A DNA stretch of 64,000 nt, taken from IMG/VR virus record IMGVR_UViG_3300027730_000005. One strand, 5' to 3'. This DNA comes from a virus (lineage: Duplodnaviria; Caudoviricetes). A model generated the notes under the pieces. It was not told the origin of the DNA. It searched no databases and worked only from the letters and a program-made list of their open reading frames with translations. The position numbers and the translations under genes were made by a program. Each line of letters starts with the position of its first letter. Position 1 is the stretch's first letter. This document shows, piece after piece, positions 41,074 through 63,216 of the stretch.

Positions 41074-43002
41074 CTATTTTACGACTAAATTGGCTGCTTC
41101 TGCCTCGGTATATGTGCTCGGAATCAAGTTTCCCTGAGTAGGAATTGAATTGGGTGTGCTAGGAATCACTGTGTCTTGTCCAGCCCCAGCAGCATCCAGA
41201 ACAAATATATTTTTACCTTCTCTCAAACAAGCCACTATGGCTTGCCCACCTTGTGTGCTGAGATTGGCAATGGTTTCAAGAAACTGTGCAGGTCCATCTT
41301 GTTCTGTATTGACTCCATAATCAGGCAAACTCTGTACCAAACTCATAATTGGACCGCGGCTGGTTGGATCTAAATTGGCCACGTCTATGCTGGCTAAAGA
41401 AAGATTAGTATTCTCTAAATTGAGATTAGCAGCCATGGAAATAAAATTATTGTTTAATACCAAAGATTGTGTAGGATACAAACTTTCAATACCAGCAACT
41501 TCAGCAGCGGCCACAGTGATCAATGCATTCAGTGCCGCATCAGGATTGGTATAAGTTCCTGCGCCTGGGCCCGGGGGGATGACCACTGTGTCGTCTATAC
41601 CTGTATTATAAACTCCATCCACGGTATTTTGCATTCGAGTGTAGATGATAATTAATGTGTTCAGGATTCCATCTGATGTCATGCTATTGAGTGTGGTGGT
41701 AACATTGGTAAGATCACTAGTGAACGGTACCCCGACTGCTGCACCCAACAAATCAGTTATGACCAATGTCCCATTGGGACCTGTTCCAGTTGCATACGTG
41801 TTGGCATAGAATTCTGCCACAGATGGCGGAACTGCTGTGGTCAATGAACTTATGAGATCAAGGTCTCGAGTGGTCTCCATGTTAGCAAATGCTAACGCCA
41901 ACTGTATCAAACTCATGTTGTTGATATTTTTAATTTGTTGCAAACTCACCTGCATGGCCTTGCAAGCCAATGCCTGATCTGGTGGGATGATCAAACTCAA
42001 TCTTTGATATGTGATCATATTACTACCGCCCAAGATCAACACATATCGTGGCAAGTAAATCAACAACTTTGAATTCACAGCGCCTTGATTGTTGTCGTAG
42101 ATGGCGCGAAGCACAGTCGATGTCTCTTGATTGTAAGTTCTCACTGTGAGACTGGGATAGCTGTTAGGGAATATCTTGACTGGGTTTAACAAGTCAGCCA
42201 TGTTATTGATATTTGGTGTGCTTACTCCAAACACAGCCAGCACCTGTTCTAGTTCTGTGCCGGTCACAGTCAACATGCCCTGATATGCTAGTCGTTGCAA
42301 ATTGTCACTAACTGTGACATTTGGATTTGCAATGTCGTTGATATCGGTTTGGTCAATTCCTGCCTGAATCAATGCATTGCTTACCCCTGGGATGAGATTG
42401 GTCAATGAAGCCAATCGTCTCAACAACGAAGCTGGTGATCCAAAATTACCAAGGTCAGAAAGATCAATCAGTTGTCCCAGCGCAGCTAGATCAGCACCAA
42501 ATGTCGGCATGGCCAAATTCACATCACTAAGATTCCCAGTGATCAAACTGTTCATTGTAGTAAAAGTTGACCCTAGATAAGTCTGACTGTTGATACTGGT
42601 ATTGATATAGTTGTTAGTTGCACTCACATAGCCTTGTGCTGCTGGAAACACCTGTGCAAACACAGTCACGTTGCCATTGCCAAGATAACTGTTGCCTTGT
42701 TCAGTGATTACCCCGGTGAATCCTGAATTCACATTGATTCCCAGATCAAGATAACCCGCAGGCGTATTGTCAGCCAGTGCCGGTACTGTGGTCGAGCAAA
42801 ACGATGCCATATTGGCCAATGTGTTGGCAGTGATGCCAGCTGGTCCTGAGTTGGCTATTGCAGCAAAGAAAGGAGTAAGCAAAGTGGTACCAGTGTAAGA
42901 AGTTACAGCAGCAGTCCAAGTGTTGGCAATTCTGATGCCACCGTTGTTGCTCAGTGTAGCACCAGCAATCATTTGTAAAGGAGTTAGAATACCAATGGTC
43001 AT
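41074..43002 (-). CDS. large T/A/N/G-rich protein, probably virion (baseplate/tail region)
   Basis: 642 aa; directly downstream of the PAAR gene; structural-type composition. Confidence 0.6.
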   Translation of the reverse strand: MTIGILTPLQMIAGATLSNNGGIRIANTWTAAVTSYTGTTLLTPFFAAIANSGPAGITANTLANMASFCSTTVPALADNTPAGYLDLGINVNSGFTGVITEQGNSYLGNGNVTVFAQVFPAAQGYVSATNNYINTSINSQTYLGSTFTTMNSLITGNLSDVNLAMPTFGADLAALGQLIDLSDLGNFGSPASLLRRLASLTNLIPGVSNALIQAGIDQTDINDIANPNVTVSDNLQRLAYQGMLTVTGTELEQVLAVFGVSTPNINNMADLLNPVKIFPNSYPSLTVRTYNQETSTVLRAIYDNNQGAVNSKLLIYLPRYVLILGGSNMITYQRLSLIIPPDQALACKAMQVSLQQIKNINNMSLIQLALAFANMETTRDLDLISSLTTAVPPSVAEFYANTYATGTGPNGTLVITDLLGAAVGVPFTSDLTNVTTTLNSMTSDGILNTLIIIYTRMQNTVDGVYNTGIDDTVVIPPGPGAGTYTNPDAALNALITVAAAEVAGIESLYPTQSLVLNNNFISMAANLNLENTNLSLASIDVANLDPTSRGPIMSLVQSLPDYGVNTEQDGPAQFLETIANLSTQGGQAIVACLREGKNIFVLDAAGAGQDTVIPSTPNSIPTQGNLIPSTYTEAEAANLVVK

Positions 43003-43840: not shown

Positions 43841-44086
43841 TTACTCCCCATATCCGCCAGCAGTTTCTTCAATGTATTTTTTTAATTCTTGAAACCCCCC
43901 AATGTGGTTGTTATGTACAAAAATTTGTGGTACTGTTCTTGCTGTGGGCACTGCTTCTAACAAGTCTTCTCGGGTGTATCCGTGCCCAATTTTCTTTTCT
44001 TCATATGCAATATTGCGTTGCTTTAACAAAGCTTTGGCTTGGTCGCAGAATGTGCAATTGTCTTTTGACCAGACGATGGCTGTCAT
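43841..44086 (-). CDS. glutaredoxin
   Basis: CTFC, RTVPQIF, IGGF; follows nrdB. Confidence 0.95.
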   Translation of the reverse strand: MTAIVWSKDNCTFCDQAKALLKQRNIAYEEKKIGHGYTREDLLEAVPTARTVPQIFVHNNHIGGFQELKKYIEETAGGYGE

Positions 44087-44095
44087 ATTTTTCCT

Positions 44096-45196
44096 TTATA
44101 AATTTGGTAGTTGATCATAATCAAGTTCAGACGACATAATACCAATTACGTAGTTAGTTGACTCATTTTCTTGCAAGGCCGTCTGTTTGCTGGATGTTGA
44201 GACATGTTTGTTGAACCATGGAATAGGTGTGCTGCGTGGTGCTGCGGTTTGATATTTGATACCAATGTCTTTGAGAGCACCAACTGCTGTGTAGTCCACA
44301 AAATCTTTGAGAATGTTTGCATTGAGACCAATTACTGGACCCATCTTGAACAAATGCTCAGCCCAGGCTTTTTCTTCACGGATCACATCCTGATACAAGG
44401 CATACACTTCTGCTTCGCAAGCGTCTTTGACCGCAGCAAATCGGTTGTCTTCTTTGATAACTTGGTTGATAAGATATGCAGTCCATCCTTTGTGCAGCAA
44501 TTCGTCTTGCAGAATCAATCCAATAATGTTGCCATTGCCAATGAAGATTTTGTTCTCTACCATGGCCAAGCTAGTGGCAAACGATACCATGAATCGGAAT
44601 GCTTCCAGTGCATAACTGGCATGCAATGCCATCCAAATTGTTCGAACATGTTCACGTTCTTCCACCGGTTGCCCTAGTTCTTTTGCACAGTTGATTCTGT
44701 GTAAGTCATCATAATATCGTCCTACACTTGATGCCATGTCTACAATTTCTGTGGTGTCATGAATGGTATTGAAAACATCTTTAGGCACGTTATAGATATT
44801 ACGAATGATATGGCTGTAACTCTTTGAATGGATATTTGTTTCAAAGAATCCCCAGTTATACATCAATGCTTCTACTTCGGGCAAGCTGCATACCGGCGTG
44901 AATACCTGTGTAGGTCCACGTCCTTGCAAACTGTCCAATGCAGTCTGCCGCAGTAAATTGCTAGTAAAGATATGTTTGACTGCATCACTGGCATCTTTAA
45001 AGTCATTGGCATCTTTGCTGAGACTGATCTCTTCAGGTTGCCAGAAGAAGCCACGTGCAGTGGCTTCAAAGTCTGCAATCTTTTTATACTTGACTTCTTC
45101 AAAGCGTTGAATAGTAACTGGACCTGCTGGGTCCAGAAACATCTTGCGATTCAAATAATCTGTCTTTGTGTTTAGGTTATATTGTGCTTGGCTCAT
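44096..45196 (-). CDS. nrdB: class Ia ribonucleotide reductase beta subunit
   Basis: FWQPEEI, ALDSLQGR, FETNIHSKSY, LEAFRFMVSF, QDELLH, QENESTNY. Confidence 0.96.
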   Translation of the reverse strand: MSQAQYNLNTKTDYLNRKMFLDPAGPVTIQRFEEVKYKKIADFEATARGFFWQPEEISLSKDANDFKDASDAVKHIFTSNLLRQTALDSLQGRGPTQVFTPVCSLPEVEALMYNWGFFETNIHSKSYSHIIRNIYNVPKDVFNTIHDTTEIVDMASSVGRYYDDLHRINCAKELGQPVEEREHVRTIWMALHASYALEAFRFMVSFATSLAMVENKIFIGNGNIIGLILQDELLHKGWTAYLINQVIKEDNRFAAVKDACEAEVYALYQDVIREEKAWAEHLFKMGPVIGLNANILKDFVDYTAVGALKDIGIKYQTAAPRSTPIPWFNKHVSTSSKQTALQENESTNYVIGIMSSELDYDQLPNL

Positions 45197-47025
45197 AATT
45201 TACAACTTTCGCAATCTTCTTCTTCATCAAAATCTATATGTTCTAACATCGGCGGTGCGATTTCAGCATCAGCTTTGCTACCCTGTTTATTCACGAGGCT
45301 ATAATAGAAGGTCTTGAGGCCCCACATATGTGCTTGCATCAAGTTCTTTGCTATCAATGTAGTTGGAACTTTACGGTCAGCGTAGTGTGCAGGGTTATAG
45401 AATGTGTTAGTACTGATACTTTGATCTACATAAGCCGCTAATACTGCTGCGGTTTTTAAGTAACCATCACAGTCTTTTTGTTCCCACATCAATTGATACT
45501 TGTTCTTTAGTTTGTGATATTCTGGAACAACTTGTGTAAAGCTACCTGCTTTACTTTCTTTAACACTAATCAAACTCATGGGCATCTCAATGCCATTTGT
45601 ACTGTTAATAACTACACTACTTGATTCTACTGGAGCAATAGCCATTTGTGTAGCATTACGTACACCGTGTTCTTTCATGTTAACACGTAATGTTTCCCAA
45701 TCTAGTTCTGGAGCAAAGTCAGTTAATTGATTAACACCTTTGGCTCTTAGTTCCCAGGGGAATACTCCTTGACCATATCTTGTCTTGTCGCTACCTTCAC
45801 ACTTGCCTCTTTCTTTGGCAAGTTCTACACTTGCTTCTGTTAGATAGAATGCTAGATGTTCTGCCCAAATTTTAACTTCAGCTAATGCATCTTTCTCACC
45901 GTACTTGAGACTACGCTTTGCATGCCAATATGCTAAGTTAGTTACACCAATGCCCAATGGACGAATCTCATCGTTGCTCAGTTTAGACTGAATGGAGAGA
46001 AAGTCTTGATAGTCAAGAATGTTATTGAGGCTACGATGCAATATGCGACAAGCACGGCGCATATCTTCGGGATTTCTAAACGCACCCCAATTTATACTTC
46101 CAAGTGTACAGAGGGCTATCCTGCCGGTATCGTCATCTAATCGCTTAAAACTTTTTGTCGGAAGTAGGATCTCACAACAGAGGTTGCTTTGATAGATGGT
46201 ATGATACTCTGGATCAAACGGTCCTTGTTTCATTACATTATCTATGAACACAAGATAGATACGTCCAGTGTCAGTGCGCTCTTTCAGTATGCCTGACTTG
46301 AATACTTCTTCTGCACTCATAGTCTTAGTACGCAGGTCTTTGCGCTTTTCATATTTAACATAAAGTTCTTCAAATCTTTCTGTATTTTGATAGAACGCTT
46401 CGTACAAATCAGGAACTTCATTTGGATCAAAGAATGTTATTTGTTCTTTGTTTTTGAATCTTCTCCAGAAGAAAGCACTAAGCACAACCCCATAATCCAT
46501 ATGACGGACTCGGGTTTCTTCTGTTCCTTGGTTGTTCTTAAGGACAATAAGATCATCAAACTGATGATGCCAAATGGGATAAAAAACTGTAGCACTTGCA
46601 TTACGAATACCTCCTTGCGAATTGTGTGTCAATACCATTGGACCATTGCTACTAGAGGAAGCAAAAAAGGTATGAGTATCTTCTACTGTAATATCAATAT
46701 AGCCAGTATCGTTTTGCTGTTCAAAATCAGAAACTAGCAAACGAGTAAATCCTGTTTCAGTGAGAACAAGATGATCGTTAGTAAGTTCCTTAGGTTTTTT
46801 CTGTAAGAACGATCCCGAGTCGCTCCATACCATTATGGGGTGATTTACGGAGCAGTTTAACACAACACCGTTTTCAAACTGCAAACGAACTTGATCTTCT
46901 GTTTTTACAATAGTATCCCACTTGTTAGTTACTGCTTTAAACAATATATCTCCTTGCTCATTTTTTGTTTTAACTTTCATCCCTATCACAAGGTCTTTAA
47001 TCTGAATCTTTTTAGTTTTTACCAT
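45193..47025 (-). CDS. nrdA: C-intein (135 aa) fused to the C-terminal part of ribonucleotide reductase alpha subunit
   Basis: ...VLTHN/SQGGIRNASATVF..., then QSNLCCEI (catalytic Cys), IALCTLGSIN, IAPVESSS, DQSISTN, C-terminal CESCKL. Confidence 0.95.
   Translation of the reverse strand: MVKTKKIQIKDLVIGMKVKTKNEQGDILFKAVTNKWDTIVKTEDQVRLQFENGVVLNCSVNHPIMVWSDSGSFLQKKPKELTNDHLVLTETGFTRLLVSDFEQQNDTGYIDITVEDTHTFFASSSSNGPMVLTHNSQGGIRNASATVFYPIWHHQFDDLIVLKNNQGTEETRVRHMDYGVVLSAFFWRRFKNKEQITFFDPNEVPDLYEAFYQNTERFEELYVKYEKRKDLRTKTMSAEEVFKSGILKERTDTGRIYLVFIDNVMKQGPFDPEYHTIYQSNLCCEILLPTKSFKRLDDDTGRIALCTLGSINWGAFRNPEDMRRACRILHRSLNNILDYQDFLSIQSKLSNDEIRPLGIGVTNLAYWHAKRSLKYGEKDALAEVKIWAEHLAFYLTEASVELAKERGKCEGSDKTRYGQGVFPWELRAKGVNQLTDFAPELDWETLRVNMKEHGVRNATQMAIAPVESSSVVINSTNGIEMPMSLISVKESKAGSFTQVVPEYHKLKNKYQLMWEQKDCDGYLKTAAVLAAYVDQSISTNTFYNPAHYADRKVPTTLIAKNLMQAHMWGLKTFYYSLVNKQGSKADAEIAPPMLEHIDFDEEEDCESCKL
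46621..47025 (-). other. C-terminal fragment of split intein (IntC)
   Basis: IQIKDLVIGMKV; block B CSVNHP; block F YIDITVEDTHTFFA; block G THN followed by Ser+1. Confidence 0.92.
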
Positions 47026-48121
47026 TTTCGTGCTCTTTTCTTGTTATTGTTTCAATATCATTAAATTTTGCAGACATGTCATATTGTTTGACTTTCAGTA
47101 CTGTTTTTCCTCTAGTTGCTCTATAATATTGATCTAATAATTCTTTTGATTTAAAGAATTTACTGTCTACCTTATAGAAAACTTTAGTGGTCTGATTAGC
47201 ATAATCGTTAATATTAATTTGATATTCTTCTTTGTCTATTATAACAGTTTTTCTTTTAGAAATTGAATAAACTACCACATTTCCGGTGTTATGATGTTTA
47301 TATAAATCCCTATCATAATTTTCTTTTTTTACTAATTTCTTCTCTCCTGTTACCCTGTCTGTAACTGGAATTAAACCAAATGTATTTCCAATGTACCGAC
47401 CATTTGAATTGTTGAAATCTTCTTGTGTTATAGTTACTCTAGTGTTAGTGGTTGTGTCGTGTGCAACCACTTTCCCTTTAGTAAGTCCCACATATCTACT
47501 GTCCGCTTGAAATACTGATTTTGGAATCCTACATGATTGTCCAGTCACTGTATCCAATGCTAAGACATAATTCTTAAATTCAGTAGAATGAATGCTAGGA
47601 TCAAAATCTGAAGTATATATCTTTTTAATTCCGGTTTCTGTTCTTATATTCATCATACCTTTTGAAATATGTAGATGTTTTCCAGTAGCAAATTCTTCCA
47701 CACTTACCCGATACGTATTTCCACTAGAATCTTTGCATAATACAGACCCTGCTCCGCAGTTTGAGCCACCTGCAGTTAGAGAGTTTATAAAAATAGAGTT
47801 CTTACCAACTTGATGCTTTTGATGGAATATTTTTTCTGCCGTAAACGCATCACTCCTGGTAGTGAAGTATTCAATTCTATACTCAAATAAGTATGGCATC
47901 TTTTTTAGTTTTTCTTTAAAATCAACTACGGTTGAACTAGTAAAGTATTTTACCAACAAATCGTGCTTATTACAGCCTTCAACCCCACGAGAACCGGAAT
48001 AAAACTTTCCAGTCTCTGTATCTTTAATAGTATAGCAGTAGTAAGCCGAATTTGATAGCATATTAGTTTGTGCTCCGTTGTATGATTCTAGTAAATAATT
48101 TAGCATTTCGTATACCCCCAT
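47012..48121 (-). mobile_element. free-standing GIY-YIG homing endonuclease between the nrdA halves
   Basis: YYCYTIKDTETGKFYSGSR, YFTSS, AFTAE, FIN; C-terminal V-x-D-x-x-TG repeats; AT-rich; own TAAATA motif. Confidence 0.82.
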
Positions 48122-48150
48122 TATTATTTATGCTTGTGTGCGAAAAACTA

Positions 48151-49104
48151 TTATTTAGCAATAGAATCATCCTCATCTAGTACTTCTATCCAAGTATCCG
48201 GAGTTACACAGCAAGACCTTAAATCTCCAAACCACTTCTTTAAAAATGGTATCATGCCGGTATGCATGATCTCACCACCGCGGATGGGTGAGCCTAGTGG
48301 TCGTAGTCGTCCAATCTCTAACCCAATGCCAGCACGTTTGCTGGCATACTTGGCCATCATTTCCCCACTAGCGAATATACTATCGAGATCATCATCGCTG
48401 CGAATAAGAACGCAGCTAGAGAATTGTTTAGTAGGAGTTCCAAGACCAGCGAGAACAGGAGTAGCAAGAGTAAATAAGCCATCACTTGCAGCATTGTAAT
48501 ATTCCTTTATATAGCGCATTCTTGCTGAGTTTGGTTCTTCCGAGTGAAAAACTGTAGCCGCTGCAACCATGTAACGAACTTGGGGAGTTTCATAAGTTTC
48601 CTTTGTGGCACGATTCTTCACAAGATATTTTTCAATCAATTGCTCGATAGCGGCATAGCCATATTGTTCGTCCTTGGAATGATCTATCATGTCCTGCATA
48701 CGGTTCCAATCAGATTCGTCGTACCATTCCAATAGTTCAGGAGTGTACAAGCCCGTGGCTACGTTTTTCTTTACAATCTCATACAAGTGGGGAGGCTCAT
48801 AAGAGCCATATACATCTTTTCTCAACATGCTAAGACGTTGCTTACCTGCCACATATTGATAGTTAGTGTGCCCAACATCTGGATTATGTTCTATATCGAT
48901 CAAGTCCACAATGGCTCGTAGTGTGATACCATCAATTTCTTTGGTAGTGATGCCATCATAAAAGTGCATCTGGGCTTTGATTTCTACCATGCTTTGACTT
49001 ACATCTGCAATGCCTGCACATACTTTGGCAATTTGGGTTTGCCACTTTTCTAGGCTTAATTGTTCTTTTCTTCCGTTACGTTTAATAACTGTGATTTGTG
49101 TCAT
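48151..49104 (-). CDS. nrdA: N-terminal part of ribonucleotide reductase alpha subunit fused to a 19-aa N-intein
   Basis: ATP cone (VIKRNGRKE), ETPQ, LATPVLAG, FSSC, KRAGIG, FGDLRSC, then CVTPDTWIEVLDEDDSIAK-stop. Confidence 0.95.
   Translation of the reverse strand: MTQITVIKRNGRKEQLSLEKWQTQIAKVCAGIADVSQSMVEIKAQMHFYDGITTKEIDGITLRAIVDLIDIEHNPDVGHTNYQYVAGKQRLSMLRKDVYGSYEPPHLYEIVKKNVATGLYTPELLEWYDESDWNRMQDMIDHSKDEQYGYAAIEQLIEKYLVKNRATKETYETPQVRYMVAAATVFHSEEPNSARMRYIKEYYNAASDGLFTLATPVLAGLGTPTKQFSSCVLIRSDDDLDSIFASGEMMAKYASKRAGIGLEIGRLRPLGSPIRGGEIMHTGMIPFLKKWFGDLRSCCVTPDTWIEVLDEDDSIAK
48154..48210 (-). other. N-terminal fragment of split intein (IntN, 19 aa)
   Basis: Block A CVTPDTWIEV starts exactly where the extein RSC should continue as SQGG. 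Confidence 0.9.
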
Positions 49105-49108
49105 ATAC

Positions 49109-49531
49109 TCAATATAGTTGTTGTTTTACATCGCTCTGCGTGATGTGATGTCTATTCTGCTGTAGGTTGATATTTAACCCTGGAGACTGGTCCCAATTCA
49201 ATATATATTTCCCATTCTCTACTAGGACTAAATTGCCCCGATCTGATTCGATCAGCATAGCGTCTTGAAGATCGTAACGATCCAGCACAGTAATAGTATA
49301 CAGGATTCCTAGCCCGCGAGCAAGATCACAATAGATGTTGTCGCTCAAAAGTTGCCAGGGATCTGGCCAATCCGCTTGATCGTCCCAGTGTAAATGATAA
49401 GCTCGCCAGGGAGTTTGTTGCCACCAGGAATTGATCTCCTCTAGGGCATCCGGCTTAGGCAGTGTGCAAACGCGATTTCGTAAAACGTTCCACGCTGCCA
49501 AACGTTGTTCAAAGGTTGAACACCACATCAA
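49109..49531 (-). CDS. conserved hypothetical phage protein
   Basis: 140-aa ORF; WPDPWQLL...YC motif. Confidence 0.65.
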   Translation of the reverse strand: MMWCSTFEQRLAAWNVLRNRVCTLPKPDALEEINSWWQQTPWRAYHLHWDDQADWPDPWQLLSDNIYCDLARGLGILYTITVLDRYDLQDAMLIESDRGNLVLVENGKYILNWDQSPGLNINLQQNRHHITQSDVKQQLY

Positions 49532-51114
49532 GCAAGTTTGGTTACCGAATAGTTAATAGTGGCTCCAATACCAGTGTTAGTGGTAGTGGCTTTCCAAGTT
49601 ACAATACCAGCAGTTTCACTCACAGCAAACGCAACACCAGTGGATGCATTTTGCACACCTGCATCGGATCCTTGTATATTTGTACCAGCATTGTCTGTTC
49701 CAGCCACAATGGTATACACACCAGTTCTGGTATTAACATCTCGAACAATAGTATAGTCAATCTGTACTGCTCTGATTGCTGTGGAATTAAATGTCAAAAT
49801 GGTTTGATCGGCTGTGTTGTTAAGCAATGATCCAGTAGCACCAGTTTGTCGCAAATACGTACCTTGTTGTAGTTGACTGGCTGAATCAAATGCTATGTTG
49901 ATACCGTTATTGACGTCGATGCGAGGATAAGTGCCAGCATAAACTGTGGTACGTTGAAACATGTCTCCGACGCTGACATTGTTTTGTCCTATGAAATTAA
50001 TAACTGATGTTGCCGGCGATGTGGTTCCATTAAAGTGATTGCCCACATCATAAAACGTGTTATAACCACTGGCATTCATTCCAGTACCAGCAGCAATTAT
50101 AATACCTTCAGCATAGATGTTATCGAATACATTGCCTAAGAAACGGAATCCAGTAGGGCCGCCATTTACTGGAGAAGGATTGCCTAACGACACACCTTGA
50201 TAGTGTGTATCAAATGTACTTTCTGTAACCAATACACCTTGCACTTGATTGGGGGTCTCAAATGCCCAGGTGGTACCACCAAATGTACATCGACGGAAAG
50301 TGATGTTATTACAGACTAAACTTGCAGTGGAACTAAAATGTACACATGCTGTGCTATCAATTGCAGTTGTTAGATCAGGTTGGCCAAGTGATCCTGAAAA
50401 ACTCACATCTGTGAATGTACACTGTTCGGCATCTTCAACCAGGAATATATCTGCTAGGCCATCGGCTTCAAATCCCATATTGGATATTGAAATATCAACT
50501 GGAGGTGTGGCGCCATTGTTACCAATATTTACTCCAGTTTGCTGCAAGCTGTCACTGTACACAGCCACAAACTGACTGGCACTGCTTGCATCTAATACAA
50601 TAACACTGGAGTTGATCCCTTCACCGCACAACAATGCATAAGGTGGAATTTCAATTGAGCTAGTGACCAAGTAGCGACCAGCTGGGAAAAATAACGATCT
50701 ACGTATTTGTGGATTTGATTCTCTACAATACAGTTGAAACAATGCACGATTGATAGCGTCAGTGTCATCAGTTACGCCATCGCCCACAGCACCAAAATTC
50801 AGTACACTGGCAAATTGGTCTAGCCAGCTTTGCAGTGGAATACTAATTGGACTACCTGACGACGATCCTGTTTGTACTGTATATCCAGCTGCTGTACCTT
50901 GGTAAGTGTATGCTCCGCCTACTAGCAATATGTCACTGTATTCAGTGAGAATTTCTGTATTGCCTATTACAGGTGCACCATCTTGCAAGGTTCCATTGCC
51001 GATGTATAATCGACGTTCGTCGATTGCCCAGCCTAATTCTGCGCCAGCTAGTTGTGGCAGATTTTCTGCTAGACCTTTACGATTTGTTATTCGTGATACT
51101 TGAACTATTGCCAT
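49528..51114 (-). CDS. tail fibre/spike-type virion protein: Mtd-N-like N-terminus plus pectate-lyase-like beta-helix
   Basis: LPQLAGAELGWAIDERRLYIGNG; VLNFGAVGDGVTDDTDAINRA, LFFPAGRYLVT. Confidence 0.75.
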   Translation of the reverse strand: MAIVQVSRITNRKGLAENLPQLAGAELGWAIDERRLYIGNGTLQDGAPVIGNTEILTEYSDILLVGGAYTYQGTAAGYTVQTGSSSGSPISIPLQSWLDQFASVLNFGAVGDGVTDDTDAINRALFQLYCRESNPQIRRSLFFPAGRYLVTSSIEIPPYALLCGEGINSSVIVLDASSASQFVAVYSDSLQQTGVNIGNNGATPPVDISISNMGFEADGLADIFLVEDAEQCTFTDVSFSGSLGQPDLTTAIDSTACVHFSSTASLVCNNITFRRCTFGGTTWAFETPNQVQGVLVTESTFDTHYQGVSLGNPSPVNGGPTGFRFLGNVFDNIYAEGIIIAAGTGMNASGYNTFYDVGNHFNGTTSPATSVINFIGQNNVSVGDMFQRTTVYAGTYPRIDVNNGINIAFDSASQLQQGTYLRQTGATGSLLNNTADQTILTFNSTAIRAVQIDYTIVRDVNTRTGVYTIVAGTDNAGTNIQGSDAGVQNASTGVAFAVSETAGIVTWKATTTNTGIGATINYSVTKLA

Positions 51115-51878: not shown

Positions 51879-52199
51879 TTAAACTCTAAAACTTTCTCCA
51901 CATCCGCAGCGGTCACGTTCGTTAGGATTGCTGAACTGAAATCCTTCGTTGAGCCCTTGTCTAGTGTAGTCTACTTCAAGACCTTGCAGATATGCACCGC
52001 TTTTGGGATCAACAAATAATTTACATTTGTTGGAATCAATACATATATCGTCCGGTTGCACAGTGTCTACATATTCTAACACATAAGCAAGCCCAGAGCA
52101 ACCTGTTGTTTTGACTCCCACACGAATACCAATTCCGTGTCCTCGACGTTGAATGGTTTGAGTTATTTTTCGAGCAGCAGTTTCAGTTATTGTTATCAT
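51879..52199 (-). CDS. iscA: Fe-S cluster A-type carrier IscA
   Basis: GCSGLAY, NPN...CGCGESF. Confidence 0.95.
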   Translation of the reverse strand: MITITETAARKITQTIQRRGHGIGIRVGVKTTGCSGLAYVLEYVDTVQPDDICIDSNKCKLFVDPKSGAYLQGLEVDYTRQGLNEGFQFSNPNERDRCGCGESFRV

Positions 52200-53446
52200 T
52201 TGATATGTTGATAGTAAGAGTTTTTATCTTCGTCTGACAGCAGATCCCATAATTTTTTATTGTTAAAACTCAGATCAGTCTTGGTTAGATTATCCCATTT
52301 TGCAGTAGTTGATATGTAAGTATCCCAATCGATCTCTGAAAAAGTATCACTAGTTAATTGATCTAAGAGAGATTGTATGCTTTTTTTAAAAACTTGATTC
52401 CTATTGAATAACGAATGCCCTTGTAATAATATCTCCTGAATCTGTACTGCTAATTTTTTCCGCAGATACAATGGCAGGGCTAACAATGACAAATGATCAC
52501 ATTCTGACAGCGAGTTGTCAAATATTTTAATATCACGCCCGGAGATATTAAACTTCCCAAAATAATCTAAAAATTCTTTAAGATAGGCTATATTGTTAAT
52601 ATAAAAAGTTGGAGTGATGTGCAAATTAACATTCGAATATGTTTCCGCTAACAATTTAAATTTTTGCAAATTATTGTGTATCTTTTCAAATTTCACTGGA
52701 TATCTTACATATACAAAGTTATCATCATCAGTTGAATCAACACTTATAGCAAACGATAAACTTTTAAAATTATTAGGCCATTTGTTAAAAATTTCTTCAA
52801 GAAACACTGATCCATTTGTGCCTATTTGCAAATTAATCTTGTTGCTGAGCTTTTCTTCTTGTAACCAGTCGGTTAGCATGTACAGGTCTGATTGGATAGT
52901 TCCTTCACCGCCCATAATGATTAATTTAAAATCTTCGTGCTGGTTGCTTATTTCTCTTATGTTAGTTTTTAATGTTTCAAAATACATTGGATCATTACCA
53001 ATGGATTTAGGTACCGTTTGGTTGGTGTTCCATATTGAATCATATAAGCTACTGGTATTAGCATTACATATTCTACAGGCCATATTGCATTTGTTACTAA
53101 ATGTAACAAACATAAGAAAGTTATCAATTTTTTTAGTTGTTAAAAATTTATTCAACTCTCGAGGACTTAAAGAAGCTAACGCCCGTTGTCTACCGCTAAA
53201 CTGATTGTTAGTTTCTTTTTTATGACATAAATGACAATTTTTATCAATCTTCCTTGATTCAATATGTTGTTTGACTTCGGCGATAGGGTTATCACCAGCG
53301 GATCGATACCAGCAACAAGGATCTTGTTTAATCGAACTAAAGTGAACACCTAAATTAGAATATGGTATTACACATATATGTTGATTGTCCATTGACCATT
53401 GATTAAACTCCACGCTGTAGTCAAATGTTGTACTATGCGGAATCAT
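52196..53446 (-). CDS. radical SAM protein with N-terminal Twitch-like Cys cluster
   Basis: CNMACRIC, MGGEG, GTNGS, SVDS; N-terminal CVIPY...PCC...CHLC; AT-rich. Confidence 0.85.
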   Translation of the reverse strand: MIPHSTTFDYSVEFNQWSMDNQHICVIPYSNLGVHFSSIKQDPCCWYRSAGDNPIAEVKQHIESRKIDKNCHLCHKKETNNQFSGRQRALASLSPRELNKFLTTKKIDNFLMFVTFSNKCNMACRICNANTSSLYDSIWNTNQTVPKSIGNDPMYFETLKTNIREISNQHEDFKLIIMGGEGTIQSDLYMLTDWLQEEKLSNKINLQIGTNGSVFLEEIFNKWPNNFKSLSFAISVDSTDDDNFVYVRYPVKFEKIHNNLQKFKLLAETYSNVNLHITPTFYINNIAYLKEFLDYFGKFNISGRDIKIFDNSLSECDHLSLLALPLYLRKKLAVQIQEILLQGHSLFNRNQVFKKSIQSLLDQLTSDTFSEIDWDTYISTTAKWDNLTKTDLSFNNKKLWDLLSDEDKNSYYQHIK

Positions 53447-57364: not shown

Positions 57365-59341
57365 TTAGGCAGTTGGCGGATTGTTTCTGGCTTTATTTCG
57401 AGCAGTAAAATCAAACCTATTCACTGCTTTGCCATAGCCTGCAGGGGTAGCAAATACCCATCCTTCGTTGCCGGGCACTTGCGTATCCAGCTGCGACAAC
57501 AGATCTAGTTTTAAATCATGCAATAGTTCAAACAACAAGAATGCAGCAGCCAAGGCCTGTTCATTTGAAGTAGGGCTACGCAGGTATTGTGCAATGTTGT
57601 TTACTTTCTGCGGAGTTTGAGTTTGTTGTAACCATGATAAAAATCCTGGAACTAGATCACTGAAATCACCAGTATACGCAGCATGATTTGGATCCACACG
57701 TTTGTTAATATAATCCACTGCCAATTTGGCCAAGTCGGTTATTTTCATAGCACGTAGTTCAGTGGGATTAAACAACGTATCCAATACTGCACGATTCTGA
57801 CGTAACAGTGTTTTGATCTGTTTGACTATGGCATCGTTCTTTGGTACAGGTTTGGCGTAGATAGGTTCAATCAGCAACAATCCTGGCACAGGATTAAACT
57901 TGACTCTACTGAGTGGTTGTTTGGACGCACCTGCATCTTCATACATGGTATGTACTGCCACACCCACATCGCTGTTGGCAATTTGCTGTCCTAGCTTGCT
58001 ACCAGCAGGAATACGATACTGTACTGTGTTAGGTTGGAATACTAAATTTCCAGCCTCCACAGGCGGGGTTTGTGTGTATAACAGATCACCTTTGACAAAA
58101 CCACGAAAGTTGGTAGGGGTAGCTGCTTCAAGATATGGCCAAATAGTTTGATATACTGGTAGTAATGTGTTTACTCTAGTGGCTGCATTACCTTTGGCTG
58201 CTGCATTGGCATCTCTGCGAGCCATATCGTCAGCGATGGCATCCGGACTGGTAAACAATCCGTCATATCCGGCGGCAGTGAATCCTGCATCATCTGTAAG
58301 CACAAACTCGCCGGTCTCGGGCTTTCTACCAAATACCACAGCAGGTTTACCGTCCCATTTTACTGATCCAGTTTTGGAATTTTCATAGAATGAATCTGCA
58401 ATAGCCAATGCTCGATCCACACCCGCAGTGCCCTGGCGGAACACATAGTCTTCTAGGTGTTCAATACCCTTGGCTTTGCCGCCGATTGCAGCAGGTTCTT
58501 GCTCGTACAGTTGATATATTTTCTTGGTTTCAATCAACGGCATCATGCCTTGATTTACAATTCTATCACGTAGTCTTGCCAAAAAGTTAACATCATTTTC
58601 CTTGACTGTGGTAGTAGGCTCCTGAAGTTCTTCACGTGCCAGATATTCGCGGAAGTCTGCTAGCTTGGTATCTCGTGAAGGGTCTTGTGCCAATGCAGCA
58701 TAAATGGATTCTACATTCTTTAGATTCTCACGGTCGGCACCTTGCCCTAGCAGCACACTTGCCACGTAGTCAGGATCCATACCACCATCCACTAGCTGAT
58801 TTGTGGTGCGAGAGAACATACCATTGGCACCCACTTTGAGTCCCAGTTGCTTGGCTATGCTGCTCATTAGCACATTGCGGTTCATTCCTTTGTATGCAGA
58901 ATCTGTGCCGCCAGCATAAAAGAATTGGCCCCAATCCAAATTAGGGAAAAACATAAAATCTGTTTGTACAAAGCCTTTGTTGGAATCGCCTGCAATAGGT
59001 GTTCGCAAGTGTACTTCGCCGCCCTTTTTGACCCACTCTCTAGGATCAAGTTCTTGACTCTGCACAAACTGTGTGAGAATAGCAGCCAATTGTTCTTTGC
59101 TGATCTCATTGAGATCCACAGCTAGATCCAAATCGCCTGATGTGGGCTTTTTACCTGTGCTGCCCAACCAACGTAGTGGTATGCCATCTGACCCTTTTTC
59201 TGTAGTAAAGTCTATACCGGTGACTTGTTCGATCCAATCAATTGTGGCTGGCACATCTTGCAGATTGATACGTTGGGTTAATGACTCACCCGATTTGGTT
59301 TTGAATACGTTGCCACCTTCAAGTAGCTGTTTAATTTGCAT
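57365..59341 (-). CDS. fusion of a Pol-beta-type nucleotidyltransferase-like domain and a DUF6267-like (ligase-like) domain
   Basis: GGNVF, LGSTGKKPTSGDLDLAVD, VQTDF; then GIEHLED, SVKWDGKPAVVFG, GDLLY, EGWV. Confidence 0.55.
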   Translation of the reverse strand: MQIKQLLEGGNVFKTKSGESLTQRINLQDVPATIDWIEQVTGIDFTTEKGSDGIPLRWLGSTGKKPTSGDLDLAVDLNEISKEQLAAILTQFVQSQELDPREWVKKGGEVHLRTPIAGDSNKGFVQTDFMFFPNLDWGQFFYAGGTDSAYKGMNRNVLMSSIAKQLGLKVGANGMFSRTTNQLVDGGMDPDYVASVLLGQGADRENLKNVESIYAALAQDPSRDTKLADFREYLAREELQEPTTTVKENDVNFLARLRDRIVNQGMMPLIETKKIYQLYEQEPAAIGGKAKGIEHLEDYVFRQGTAGVDRALAIADSFYENSKTGSVKWDGKPAVVFGRKPETGEFVLTDDAGFTAAGYDGLFTSPDAIADDMARRDANAAAKGNAATRVNTLLPVYQTIWPYLEAATPTNFRGFVKGDLLYTQTPPVEAGNLVFQPNTVQYRIPAGSKLGQQIANSDVGVAVHTMYEDAGASKQPLSRVKFNPVPGLLLIEPIYAKPVPKNDAIVKQIKTLLRQNRAVLDTLFNPTELRAMKITDLAKLAVDYINKRVDPNHAAYTGDFSDLVPGFLSWLQQTQTPQKVNNIAQYLRSPTSNEQALAAAFLLFELLHDLKLDLLSQLDTQVPGNEGWVFATPAGYGKAVNRFDFTARNKARNNPPTA

Positions 59342-59640: not shown

Positions 59641-60684
59641 ATGAACAACTACTTTTGCGTTTTACCTTGGTACAGTCAAGAACTAGGATCTCAAAATAGT
59701 CCATGTTGCCTATTGCCGGACAAATACAATATTAATCAAATAAAACAAGATTTGCTCAATAACATTCCATCTGTAGATTGTAAAAAATGTTGGGATATAG
59801 AATCCACTGGAAACAAAAGTCGCCGTCAATTTGAGAATGAATTTTTAGACTATAAATTGGATAGAGATTTAGATAAGATTCAACAAGATTGTGCAGACTT
59901 AAAACATCAAACTTTACTTTATCAAATAACCACTAGTAATCTGTGTAATCAGGCATGTGTGAGCTGTGATAGCAGCTTATCAACTAAATGGGCGCAGATT
60001 GAAAAACGCATGGACATAATTCCTAAATCTCAATATCAAATTGAATTAGATCCAACAATTATCAATTACAGTTCAGCAAAACGAATTTCTTTGCTGGGCG
60101 GCGAACCGTTATTTGACCCTAAGACTTTTAAAATATTACAAAACTTAATTGACCACAATAACACTAATTGTTTTATATCATTGATCACCAATGGCAGTAT
60201 ACATCTAAACATACAACAAATTGACTTACTGAAGCAGTTTAATGATTTGAATATTTGTATCAGCATTGATGGCATTGGTACTGTATTTGAATACATGAGA
60301 TGGCCCGGAAAGTGGAATAACCTACTAGAAAATATTAAACAGTACAAAAACATAGCAAAAAATATCAGTGTAAGCTACACAATTAGTTCATTGAATGCTA
60401 TGTACTATAACGAAACTGTTGAGTGGTTTCAACAGAATAATCTAACATACAATCACAATGTTGTTTCATCTCCAGAATGGCTATCACTAGCAAACATGCC
60501 AACCATACTAAAACAACACTTAACTCAACAAGATAATTTTATCAAAATGTATTGTAAGCCCAATGGATGTGAGATAGATTTAAAAATCCTAACACAAAAT
60601 ATTGTTAAACAAGACCATGCAAAAAAAATAAACATCAAAGACTATATGCCTGAACTAGCTGCTGTTATTTTTGATACTGTATAA
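59641..60684 (+). CDS. radical SAM protein with N-terminal Twitch-like Cys cluster
   Basis: CNQACVSC, LLGGEPL, ITNGS, SIDG; N-terminal CVLPW...PCC...CKKC. Confidence 0.88.
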   Translation: MNNYFCVLPWYSQELGSQNSPCCLLPDKYNINQIKQDLLNNIPSVDCKKCWDIESTGNKSRRQFENEFLDYKLDRDLDKIQQDCADLKHQTLLYQITTSNLCNQACVSCDSSLSTKWAQIEKRMDIIPKSQYQIELDPTIINYSSAKRISLLGGEPLFDPKTFKILQNLIDHNNTNCFISLITNGSIHLNIQQIDLLKQFNDLNICISIDGIGTVFEYMRWPGKWNNLLENIKQYKNIAKNISVSYTISSLNAMYYNETVEWFQQNNLTYNHNVVSSPEWLSLANMPTILKQHLTQQDNFIKMYCKPNGCEIDLKILTQNIVKQDHAKKINIKDYMPELAAVIFDTV

Positions 60685-61783
60685 ATTCAGCAACTTCAGG
60701 GAATACTGCTGTCATGTTTAAGTTTCTGCGATGATCATTTTTTTGTAACTCTTCCAGTACTCTTGTTAAATTGTATTGTTGTGATCCTAGAATTTTCAAT
60801 TGTTGTATCCAAGGTTGGCAGTAATTGGATTGAGATTTAAAATACTCAATCATTGCATTGGGCATGGACTCTAGTCCGATGGACTCTAGTCCGTAAATTC
60901 CAAATGCTTGATGTGTGTATATTTCTATATCGTCACCAAATACAGATTTTGAAAAGTTTTGTTCATGCCAGTTGTACACATTATTAAGACTTAAAACATT
61001 TAAAATGCTAGCAGTCACAGTCAATGACAACATGCTGTTGTGAGGTAAATTTTTCTGCCACCACAATAAATTTTCTTCAACTTTATCCCATTTAGCTGGA
61101 TATCGCAAATACTCAAATTGATTACCAATCTCGTCGATACTGAAACTTATTCGAGCAAACTTAAATTTTTCAATAAGTTCTTTTGTTGATTGATCTATGC
61201 GTTGGGTACCATTAGTGTTGTACATTAATTTGATTTGGCTAACATCTGTATGATCAACTAGGTGTTGTAATATTTGTTTATGAGTTAATGTTAAAAATGG
61301 CTCGCCTCCCCACATACGAAGTTCTCGCAAATTTGAAAGATCGAGAGCCTGCAATTTTGTTTTTATAAAATTGTCAATGTTAGGCCTAACATTGAGGCCT
61401 TTTATCCCAAGTTCTTTTCTCCAGGTGGTACTTAGCTCCGGGCCGCATGTTACACAAGCCAAATTACAAGTATAGTCAATATTAACGTCAAGGTATTGAA
61501 TGCCTGGATCATGTGTTTCTGCACCATGGGTTTCAAGGTAACCTACCCGCATGCTTTTTTTATTTGTCTCTTCTTGAGCAATACATTTAGAACAAAAAGA
61601 TTTTGGCAAAATATTTTGTTGATTTTTAACACGCAGTTGGATTAGATCTGGGTGAAAAAAATCAACATGATCCGAAGTTTGAATTAACTGGTTTGCCCAA
61701 CAACATGCCGAGTATGATACTGATTGTTTGTCAATTTTGGCTAGCATAAGCCCATGATGTATCCTAGGGCAGTATTTGCTCAT
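60665..61783 (-). CDS. radical SAM protein with N-terminal Twitch-like Cys cluster
   Basis: CNLACVTC, WGGEPF, NTNGT, SIDE; N-terminal CPRI...ACC...CSKC. Confidence 0.88.
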   Translation of the reverse strand: MSKYCPRIHHGLMLAKIDKQSVSYSACCWANQLIQTSDHVDFFHPDLIQLRVKNQQNILPKSFCSKCIAQEETNKKSMRVGYLETHGAETHDPGIQYLDVNIDYTCNLACVTCGPELSTTWRKELGIKGLNVRPNIDNFIKTKLQALDLSNLRELRMWGGEPFLTLTHKQILQHLVDHTDVSQIKLMYNTNGTQRIDQSTKELIEKFKFARISFSIDEIGNQFEYLRYPAKWDKVEENLLWWQKNLPHNSMLSLTVTASILNVLSLNNVYNWHEQNFSKSVFGDDIEIYTHQAFGIYGLESIGLESMPNAMIEYFKSQSNYCQPWIQQLKILGSQQYNLTRVLEELQKNDHRRNLNMTAVFPEVAEFIQYQK

Positions 61784-63216
61784 GATGTTTTGATCTTTCC
61801 TAACAACTGCTTGAGTTTGGTACTTTGCACATCTGCTGAGATTTTTGGATCTGACGAGTCATTACTATCTTTAGGAGTCGGACGGTCCCACCTGCTGCCT
61901 GAATTGATAGATTCTGCTGGAGTGACTGACGCTTTTGCTTTGATAGAATCCATCAAGCTGGGTTTGCGGAACGAATTTTCACCGCCTTCGTCTCCAGCAT
62001 CTGTAATACGCATAGTGTCAATATCATATTCAAGATCAATTTTTTGTCCTACTCCTGTTGAACTGCGCGACTTCATACATTGAATTTGATACTTGCCACG
62101 CTCTTTCATTTGTCTGCTGGTAAGGATACCAAACACATTATCTGCTGTGTTGATCTTGCTAATACCACCTGAAATATGACTGTGGTCAAACTCTACTTCT
62201 TCTACAGCTGATCGATTCAACTGACTTGCAGTGACCATGAGTATTTGTAATTCTTTGGCCAAATTACGTAGTTCTTCACTCACATATTTGTCTTTAACAA
62301 ACAAATCATTAGGACTTACTTTTGCGCTCACTGGCATCAACAAATCCAAATAGTCAATCATCACAAAGTCCACACGCTTGCCTGTTTGAATTTGATATTC
62401 TTTCAAGTATGCTCGTATATCATTGATGTTGCTCTGTGCCGGTAATCCTTTCACTTGATAGTTTCCAGATTTCTTACCCACTAGTTTGACTTTGAGCTCA
62501 GTGGTATCAATATCTTTACGAATATCCTTGGTGCTCATGTTGGTCAGCATAGCATCAGTTCTTAGACTTGTGAGTTCTTCACTCAACTCCAATGTGATGT
62601 ACACCCCGCTCAATCCTGTTTGTACCCAATTCAATGCTATGTTCATCATGACCAAACTCTTGCCCGAACCCGACCCACCAGCAAAGATGTTTAATTCACC
62701 GCGACTGAATCCACCATACAACAGTCGATCCATCTGCGGCCATCCTGTGCTGACTTGTCCGCCAGAGTTGAAATACTTTTCAATTCTACCCTTGGGATCA
62801 GCAAAGTAATCAGTGCCCATGTCTTTAGTCAAGCTGATTTGCACAGCATCTTTGATCAGTTTCTCCACTGGATCATAATCGCCTTTTTCCAACAAGTCTG
62901 CTGCTTTGAGAATTGCACGTTCCAGTTCTTGACGGCGAGTGAATGCTTCAAACTCTGTCATGAACCATTCAAAGTGTCCTTCGTTCAGCTCCGGCACTGG
63001 TTGTAGTTTCACTCCTGTTGTGGCTGATATCTGTGCTCTATCAGGAAGTGTTTTGTATTTGTCTCCGTGTTCTTTAAGAAACTCAGCAGCTGGTCTCAAA
63101 CTTCGATCAAAGTTTTCTGGATTATAGATGTTCTGTACACGTACATAGCCTTGTGCGTCTTCCAACATCATTTCCAAAAATAACTTTTGTACTTCAATAG
63201 AATAATCTTTAAGCAT
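61780..63216 (-). CDS. DnaB-like replicative helicase (T4 gp41-like)
   Basis: GGSGSGKS, ITLEL, MIDYLDL, TASQLNR, KSRSS. Confidence 0.93.
   Translation of the reverse strand: MLKDYSIEVQKLFLEMMLEDAQGYVRVQNIYNPENFDRSLRPAAEFLKEHGDKYKTLPDRAQISATTGVKLQPVPELNEGHFEWFMTEFEAFTRRQELERAILKAADLLEKGDYDPVEKLIKDAVQISLTKDMGTDYFADPKGRIEKYFNSGGQVSTGWPQMDRLLYGGFSRGELNIFAGGSGSGKSLVMMNIALNWVQTGLSGVYITLELSEELTSLRTDAMLTNMSTKDIRKDIDTTELKVKLVGKKSGNYQVKGLPAQSNINDIRAYLKEYQIQTGKRVDFVMIDYLDLLMPVSAKVSPNDLFVKDKYVSEELRNLAKELQILMVTASQLNRSAVEEVEFDHSHISGGISKINTADNVFGILTSRQMKERGKYQIQCMKSRSSTGVGQKIDLEYDIDTMRITDAGDEGGENSFRKPSLMDSIKAKASVTPAESINSGSRWDRPTPKDSNDSSDPKISADVQSTKLKQLLGKIKTS

Follow-up and report, generated by a model that had tools for sequence, protein, structure and literature searches.

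A predicted atypically split intein and a GIY-YIG-like nuclease gene divide nrdA at specificity loop 2 in a lake-water phage

The window analyzed here, a 64,000-nucleotide stretch of IMG/VR virus record IMGVR_UViG_3300027730_000005 (Duplodnaviria; Caudoviricetes), carries a class Ia ribonucleotide reductase (RNR) gene, nrdA, whose two halves are separated by a third gene. The open reading frame (ORF) list of the window places three ORFs at 45193-49104, with all nrdA and cassette features on the minus strand, and the layout described in a first-pass annotation of this DNA proves correct to the base. The first ORF (48151-49104, 317 amino acids) comprises a 298-residue nrdA N-extein ending ...WFGDLRSC (48211-49104), followed by a 19-residue putative intein N-terminal fragment (hereinafter IntN; CVTPDTWIEVLDEDDSIAK, net charge -5; 48151-48210 including a TAA stop codon at 48151-48153). 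The third ORF (45193-47025, 610 amino acids) opens with a 135-residue putative intein C-terminal fragment (hereinafter IntC; 46621-47025) that ends in MVLTHN and runs directly into SQGGIRN, the start of the 475-residue C-extein (45193-46620 including its stop). A stop codon and 1128 bases lie between the two intein parts. Much of this interval is taken up by a free-standing gene of 364 codons (47012-48106), assigned as a homing endonuclease gene from its predicted fold and motifs, which is preceded by a hairpin with a 10-bp stem in its 5′ untranslated region (48106-48145) and whose stop overlaps the start of the IntC ORF by 14 bases. The whole cassette measures 1590 bases (46621-48210), and the nuclease gene has a G+C content of 32% compared with 39% in the exteins.

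The N-extein consists of an ATP-cone and the RNR all-alpha domain and enters the barrel for ~60 residues, and the C-extein contains the rest of the barrel (PF02867, E 1e-94), including the remainder of loop 2, the thiyl-radical cysteine in SNLC and the C-terminal CxxC tail. On the 761-position NCBIfam model of class Ia NrdA, the first ORF covers positions 3-293 (313.7 bits) and the third ORF positions 292-760 (498.4 bits). Since their coverage of the Pfam and NCBIfam models is complementary, the two ORFs tile a single NrdA, as had been proposed from the sequence. Alignment to the E. coli R1 chains places the break between the equivalents of C292 and S293, at the first residues of what we take to be specificity loop 2 (E. 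coli R1 residues 292-301).

The site is uninterrupted in close relatives. The first 195 residues of the C-extein served as the query against IMG/VR, and we examined the best 80 loci, which are 94-98% identical over this segment. The insert is missing from all 77 loci that extend far enough upstream, and their sequence, ...KKWFGDLRSC-SQGGIRN, is identical to the predicted spliced product of the divided gene, with the RSC-SQGGIRN junction that the first-pass annotation had anticipated. In lake run X11, a minor contig joins 46620 to 48211 with a net loss of 1590 bases, at a depth of 3 compared with 56 for the cassette form, so that a single sample contains alleles with and without the cassette. 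The cassette is thus a presence/absence polymorphism at one exact site. Compared with cassette-free relatives in 90-base bins, the exteins are a mosaic of 62-98% DNA identity. Several of these relatives (L068, L071, L073, L079 and others) are ~77% identical to the nrdA of the window overall and 91-98% identical over the first 180 bases past the insertion site, which is the segment used to select them. The mosaic carries no verdict on co-conversion, because the loci were chosen by the segment just after the junction.

The pieces flanking the middle gene are supported by sequence as two parts of one class 1 intein, split just after block A into 19 and 135 residues. The class 1 motif set comprises Cys1 in IntN, block B SVNH (S59 and H62, within CSVNH), block F YIDITVEDTHTFF (D111) and block G THN (H134 and N135, within MVLTHN) in IntC, and Ser+1 in the C-extein. 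Cys1 and the core C-V-T-P-D-T-W-V-E are conserved across 26 N-fragments, and C58, S59, H62, D111, H134, N135 and S136 (that is, Ser+1) do not vary among 33 IntC sequences with identities as low as 74%. Residues 1-13 of IntN form the conserved core (block A, putative strands b1-b2), and residues 14-19 form a variable acidic tail. IntC matches intein and HINT profiles weakly: intein_Cterm (TIGR01443) scores 19.7 bits against a cut-off of 15.6, and PF14890 and PF07591 both fall under their gathering scores. A profile built from the intein family matches the solved Pab PolII intein across block B (E 1.9e-5) and finds no solved atypically split intein at E <= 1.

Contiguous alleles point to the same split position. 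At 11 of 56 IMG/VR loci, and in P0048, P0088, P0108 and P0028, a short, variable acidic linker connects this IntN core to this IntC and lies exactly where the window's intein is split, a position predicted to follow strand b2. Together with the placement of the 19- and 135-residue parts on separate ORFs and the conserved catalytic set, these alleles bear out the earlier proposal of an atypical split after block A with a very short IntN. A modeled complex between IntC (residues 1-150 of the ORF) and the last 38 residues of the N-fragment reaches a median-run interface score (ipSAE) of 0.70, compared with 0.02 for the best control. The 0.70 mark is reached by 58 of 80 solved complexes and by 2 of 110 mismatched pairs, counts that are rough since our own alignments were used. 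In the model, IntN residues 1-13 contact IntC residues 2-10, 56-62, 105-111 and 120-133, namely the basic N-terminal strand (MVKTKKIQIK...) and blocks B, F and G, and the charges are complementary, IntN carrying -5 and the 25 N-terminal residues of IntC +5. The model supports association of IntN and IntC to complete the fold and speaks for docking rather than for the chemistry of splicing. As judged from the complex model and the conserved catalytic residues, NrdA would depend on protein trans-splicing.

The first-pass annotation had called the middle gene a free-standing GIY-YIG endonuclease gene, of which the free-standing gene stands, and the GIY-YIG assignment is favored by fold, motifs and language-model neighbors but receives nothing from profile hidden Markov models (HMMs). 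The AlphaFold2 model of the protein (predicted local distance difference test, pLDDT, 87.8) comprises a GIY-YIG-like domain (~residues 20-110), a series of about six beta-hairpin/helix repeats and, at the C-terminus, a small helical domain that weakly resembles the DNA-binding domain of I-TevI (Z 3.2). When residues 21-111 are compared exhaustively with known structures by VIA-align, the top four matches are all GIY-YIG nucleases: the catalytic domain of I-TevI (Z 5.8, root-mean-square deviation 3.6, 84 residues aligned), UvrC (Z 4.7), PD-T4-3 (Z 4.7) and T4 EndoII (Z 4.2). Its Atlas language-model neighbors are viral SegE_GIY-YIG and GIY-YIG clusters, at 0.94. In 27 homologues, YCYT...(F/Y)YSG, E91 and N108 are invariant or nearly so and the Arg position holds Arg or Lys; these residues were matched to R27, E75 and N90 of I-TevI by eye and not by superposition. 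The GIY-YIG assignment is thus supported by the fold match, the Atlas neighbors and the conserved motifs. The 97 homologue clusters of the protein are all unnamed and have no Pfam domains. Searching PDB sequences with the 27-homologue profile gives chance-level matches only, Foldseek of the whole multi-domain model against PDB gives no match at E <= 0.001, and neither megablast with the locus nor tblastn with the nuclease matches any of 50,697 phage records. In runs X11 and X12, some contigs share the ends of the nuclease gene and diverge into unrelated sequence at 47318 and 47925, with an identical loose-end consensus in both runs, and a weak joint from 47338 to 47906 is also present inside the gene; these contigs apparently come from a co-occurring phage whose nuclease is a variant with its central part replaced.

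Translation of the nuclease most likely starts at ATG 48106 (364 amino acids, 44 bases after the IntN stop) rather than at the in-frame upstream ATG 48121 (369 amino acids, 29 bases after it), because the ATG, a GGAGG-type ribosome site and the preceding hairpin are kept in relatives. The spacer can form a 10-bp stem in 11 loci, and double compensatory changes occur at four of its positions. The loop carries a late-promoter-like CATAAATAA box (TATAAATA in L042) and the ribosome site (GGAGG; GGGGG in the window), and the last base of the 3′ arm is the A of the conserved start codon. In Aeh1 mobE and in the fractured genes described in 2009, the ribosome site is masked in read-through transcripts and accessible in late transcripts, which begin within the hairpin (PMC2677866). 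The arrangement found here is that of Aeh1 mobE and those genes, with the promoter being a predicted one.

The divided gene is common in metagenomes and not unique to the phage of the window. The stretch is present in at least 15 lake-water or freshwater metagenome runs, and a metagenome protein search finds 4788 proteins that match the IntC region and 512 clusters of N-fragments from other assemblies. In the best 120 of these 512 clusters, the tail after ...SC reads C-V-T-P-D-T-W-V-E-V-L-D-E followed by a variable acidic stretch, and is mostly 14-25 residues long, with 19 the commonest length. A search for the IntN/IntC pair and its insertion site, which the first-pass annotation had called for, therefore finds hundreds of relatives broken at this position, as well as a cultured Acinetobacter phage.

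We surveyed the state of the site in 56 IMG/VR loci (L numbers) and in further relatives (P numbers). Empty alleles and contiguous mini-inteins both occur. About 26 of the 56 loci are split with the nuclease family of the window. Further relatives are split with an HNH + NUMOD3 nuclease (L006; also P0078), with proteins of 538-917 amino acids that carry DUF7487 and weak Vsr/restriction-endonuclease matches (L024, L035, L040, L048 and L051; also P0033), or with nucleases of the KARL-1 type described below (L056-L058). Others are split with nuclease remnants of 200-230 bases (L011, L026 and L060-L062) or without a nuclease (L032, L034 and L064), and re-fused forms contain an in-frame nuclease remnant inside the intein (P0047 and P0064/65). 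The nuclease slot is therefore filled, empty, replaced or degraded from one relative to another. IntN spans 13-25 residues in the surveyed loci, or 12-25 when KARL-1 is included, and is most often 19 residues long. Five states thus occur at one nrdA site: empty; contiguous mini-intein; mini-intein invaded at what would be the loop after its first two strands (S1) by at least four nuclease types; split with a remnant of a nuclease; and split or re-fused forms that lack one. From this series it would seem that the intein gene is itself the homing target of the nucleases, as a parasite of a parasite.

Further inserts occur elsewhere in nrdA among these relatives. Some carry an intein of the type described in 2009 as a second insert (SNLC|C), which the window itself lacks. 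In P0028, P0033 and P0037, middle fragments of nrdA end ...GEFKL, just before the Cys equivalent to E. coli C462 (residues ~168-171 of the window's C-extein, IALC, about 46108-46119), and continue into TLDNG.EITLPGQHKVLL... for ~40 residues before a stop. This stretch looks like a further short intein N-fragment with Thr in place of Cys as its first residue and, if real, would add an atypically split intein that begins with an uncommon residue. Three inserts are reported for the nrdA of P0048 (L002:4001-7318), which has the loop-2 intein in contiguous form, no insert at SNLC, and at APVES|C a further intein that is split; a 32-residue ORF comes next, and then 177 residues of IntC with the C-terminal fragment. 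In the same relative, nrdB and the glutaredoxin gene are separated by a JmjC-domain gene.

Among the 50,697 phage records, homologues of the intein occur in only eight, from six phages. Acinetobacter phage KARL-1 (MH713599) shows all parts of the fractured arrangement: the ...AVHS of KARL1_58 runs into CLTPDTKVEILV, a predicted 12-residue IntN, KARL1_59 is the nuclease, and KARL1_60 opens with an IntC ending MVLTHN followed by CSQGG. KARL-1 shares with the window a homologous intein, the split position and a homologous nuclease catalytic domain (28% identity, E 9e-7), but its insertion lies one residue earlier (S|C) with Cys as the +1 residue, its IntN has 12 residues, and its nuclease carries DUF7487 repeats in place of the repeats found in the window. 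The KARL-1 record labels two genes 'aerobic NDP reductase large subunit' and the one between them a hypothetical protein, and no mention of an intein is found in the record or in the paper on the phage. Shewanella phages Thanatos-1 and Thanatos-2 and Vibrio phages SUMAE and VPALA carry contiguous homologues, which are mini-inteins in the loop-2 region of NrdA, 32-51% identical to the KARL-1 IntC and, unlike the intein of the window, unsplit and without a nuclease. The copy in Campylobacter phage IBB_35 is contiguous, is annotated 'intein' and lies, by eye, about eight residues further along loop 2, after RGG.

The intein belongs to two published kinds, the fractured genes (2009) and the atypically split inteins (2014-2023). 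Fractured genes were defined by Dassa, London, Stoddard, Schueler-Furman and Pietrokovski in 2009 and include NrdA-1 to NrdA-7, NrdJ-1 and gp41-1, among others (PMC2677866). Like the locus described here, they have host-N + IntN, a spacer, a free-standing endonuclease gene and IntC + host-C on one strand with overlapping frames; the spacer measures 27-51 bases there and 29-44 in the window, the nuclease is of the GIY-YIG or another type and is preceded by a hairpin and a late-promoter box, and the host can be a phage nrdA. By contrast, the 2009 NrdA inteins (seven loci) sit at the thiyl-radical cysteine and have a canonical split with a long IntN and a short IntC, whereas the intein of the window occupies loop 2, ~147 residues upstream, and breaks after 13-19 residues. 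Aeromonas phage Aeh1 also resembles the window in that a homing endonuclease gene has turned the nrdA of a T4-like phage into two genes (nrdA-a/mobE/nrdA-b) and the nuclease is under hairpin and late-promoter control, but Aeh1 has no intein, its fragments assemble non-covalently via added tails, its nuclease is of the HNH type and its site is a different one (PMC3045599).

Natural inteins split at S1 include VidaL, with a 16-residue IntN, and PolB16 OarG, whose 15-residue IntN was called 'record-short' (PMC10189870; PMC13014065). They are split after the first two strands, as is predicted for the window's intein, and share with it a very short IntN and a long IntC, class 1 blocks A, B, F and G, and an origin in phage-like metagenomic DNA, and differ from it in host gene, insertion site and lineage, with Cys1/Ser+1 here where PolB16 has Ser/Ser. 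AceL-TerL and GOS-TerL (25- and 37-residue IntN) are likewise naturally split with a short IntN and come from phage genes of aquatic metagenomes, but are split later, after helix a1 (S2), and in the terminase gene (PMC13014065). Natural IntN fragments were stated in 2026 to span 15-37 residues (PMC13014065), a range below which the predicted 12-13-residue IntN of the relatives KARL-1, L056 and L064 would fall. Relative to these inteins, the intein of the window has a new insertion site, a lineage without a sequence match to the solved atypical inteins, the Cys1/Ser+1 pair and relatives below the published length range. Literature on atypical split inteins, searched with RNR, NrdA, loop 2 and KARL-1 and including subscription papers in part, contains no report of this site or intein lineage.

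These observations fit a model in which trans-splicing restores NrdA and a late-expressed GIY-YIG-type nuclease drives the spread of the cassette, which we regard as highly likely. The 1590-base cassette would be a selfish element: a class 1 mini-intein inside the nrdA of a lake-water phage, itself invaded at S1 by a free-standing GIY-YIG-type homing endonuclease gene, an event that would have created a stop codon and a new start and so turned the host gene into two. The two products would be translated separately, and the HINT fold would be completed when the acidic 19-residue IntN docks onto the 135-residue IntC at its basic N-terminal strand. Splicing would then proceed through a thioester at Cys1, attack by Ser+1, cyclization of Asn135 and an O-to-N shift, yielding a normal 773-residue NrdA with loop 2 intact (...RSC-SQGGIRN...). 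The endonuclease is probably translated only late, as read-through transcripts would fold the hairpin over the ribosome site and start codon, and transcripts starting from the late-promoter-like box in the loop would not include the 5′ arm. During mixed infections, cassette-free alleles would be cleaved by the nuclease and would acquire the cassette through repair.

Several points weigh against this model. The evidence for splicing, consisting of conserved residues and a structure model, is indirect. The Pfam Intein_splicing profile scores 24.8 bits, under its gathering cut-off of 35.8, and the AlphaFold2 monomer model of a contiguous allele is poor (pLDDT 56.8). The fold match of the nuclease is modest (Z under 8), and no nuclease profile HMM in Pfam (even at E 10; PF01541 and PF19835), PHROGs or NCBIfam matches it; because every profile HMM fails, we call the protein GIY-YIG-like by fold and not a demonstrated member of the family. 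The window's own copy of the hairpin has 2 of 10 stem pairs mismatched and folds only weakly better than shuffled sequences (z -1.84). A second RNR may also be encoded elsewhere in the ~256-kb phage: no second nrdA was found within the 64-kb window, which is the extent of the search, and the nearest genome record (G001) overlaps nrdA at its 3′ end alone.

That last point bears on the reading that nrdA is decaying while the phage relies on an RNR of the host or on another of its own, a course with a parallel in Campylobacter phages, where nrdA is degenerating under a load of inteins and inserts (PMC3653736). Here, however, both halves are full-length and open and score highly on the class Ia model, and the same open arrangement is kept in hundreds of diverged copies. 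The genes nrdB (44096-45196, 366 amino acids), directly downstream of nrdA, and the glutaredoxin gene after it (43841-44086, 81 amino acids), both on the minus strand and assigned by Pfam, are also intact, and we consider decay very improbable. Only slightly more credible, and still unlikely, is that the intein halves have lost splicing and serve as a docking module that holds the NrdA fragments together non-covalently, like the tails of NrdA-a and NrdA-b. Such a divided nrdA works without splicing in Aeh1 (PMC3045599; PMC2677866), and the complex model speaks for docking rather than for chemistry. By contrast, the residues needed for chemistry alone (Cys1, the block B His, the penultimate His, the terminal Asn and Ser+1) are invariant over many diverged copies, a 154-residue domain would remain at the start of the substrate-specificity loop, and the contiguous alleles of the same intein must splice for any enzyme to form.

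An assembly error, or a joining of the halves at the RNA level by an intron, is the least plausible of the alternatives, with hardly any probability left to it. A joined form is present in one RNA library (X20), in a contig that differs from the window at 10 of 104 bases; because of these differences, and because the joined form also occurs in DNA run X11, we attribute it to the cassette-free allele of a relative. Contigs of 1716 and 1840 bases from runs X11 and X12, neither of which is flagged as a possible source of the window, span 46513-48352, and so take in the nuclease gene together with the IntN stop and IntC start on either side of it, with 0 differences, so that the intervening stops, for which assembly error had been named as a possible refutation, are genuine. 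An Rfam scan of 44000-50000 finds no intron or other RNA family at E <= 1, leaving RNA splicing unsupported, and such an 'intron' would need to encode two in-frame intein parts. We therefore rejected this explanation on the grounds of the identical independent contigs, the lack of an Rfam match and the identity of the joined form as a relative's empty allele.

The nrdA-nrdB-glutaredoxin block is embedded among virion genes. A pectate-lyase-like gene of the tail-spike type lies directly upstream of nrdA (49528-51114, minus strand), large Thr/Asn/Gly-rich structural proteins are encoded downstream of the glutaredoxin gene (41074-43002, minus strand), and the same neighbors flank nrdA in relative L002. 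The window also holds three genes of the radical SAM superfamily (52196-53446, minus strand; 59641-60684, plus strand; 60665-61783, minus strand), which lie partly in its patches of lowest G+C content (32%) and adjoin a DnaB-like helicase gene (61780-63216) and a DUF6267 gene (57365-59341).

The locus carries a lesson for annotation, in that two 'NrdA' ORFs flanking a hypothetical gene can be one enzyme. Split inteins with a short IntN are wanted for protein semisynthesis and live-cell labeling, because the short piece can be a synthetic peptide, and few natural ones have been characterized. This family supplies a Cys1/Ser+1 pair, a 13-residue conserved core, hundreds of natural variants, contiguous folding references and a homologue in a cultured phage. 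If the 12-13-residue IntN of KARL-1, L056 and L064 trans-splice efficiently, they would be the shortest natural split-intein fragments known. The dense series of intermediates at a single site bears on how a mini-intein is converted into a split intein and how one nuclease family replaces another. It is possible, though we would stop short of calling it probable, that the family is a natural record of split-intein origin and reversion in which such short fragments might splice efficiently.

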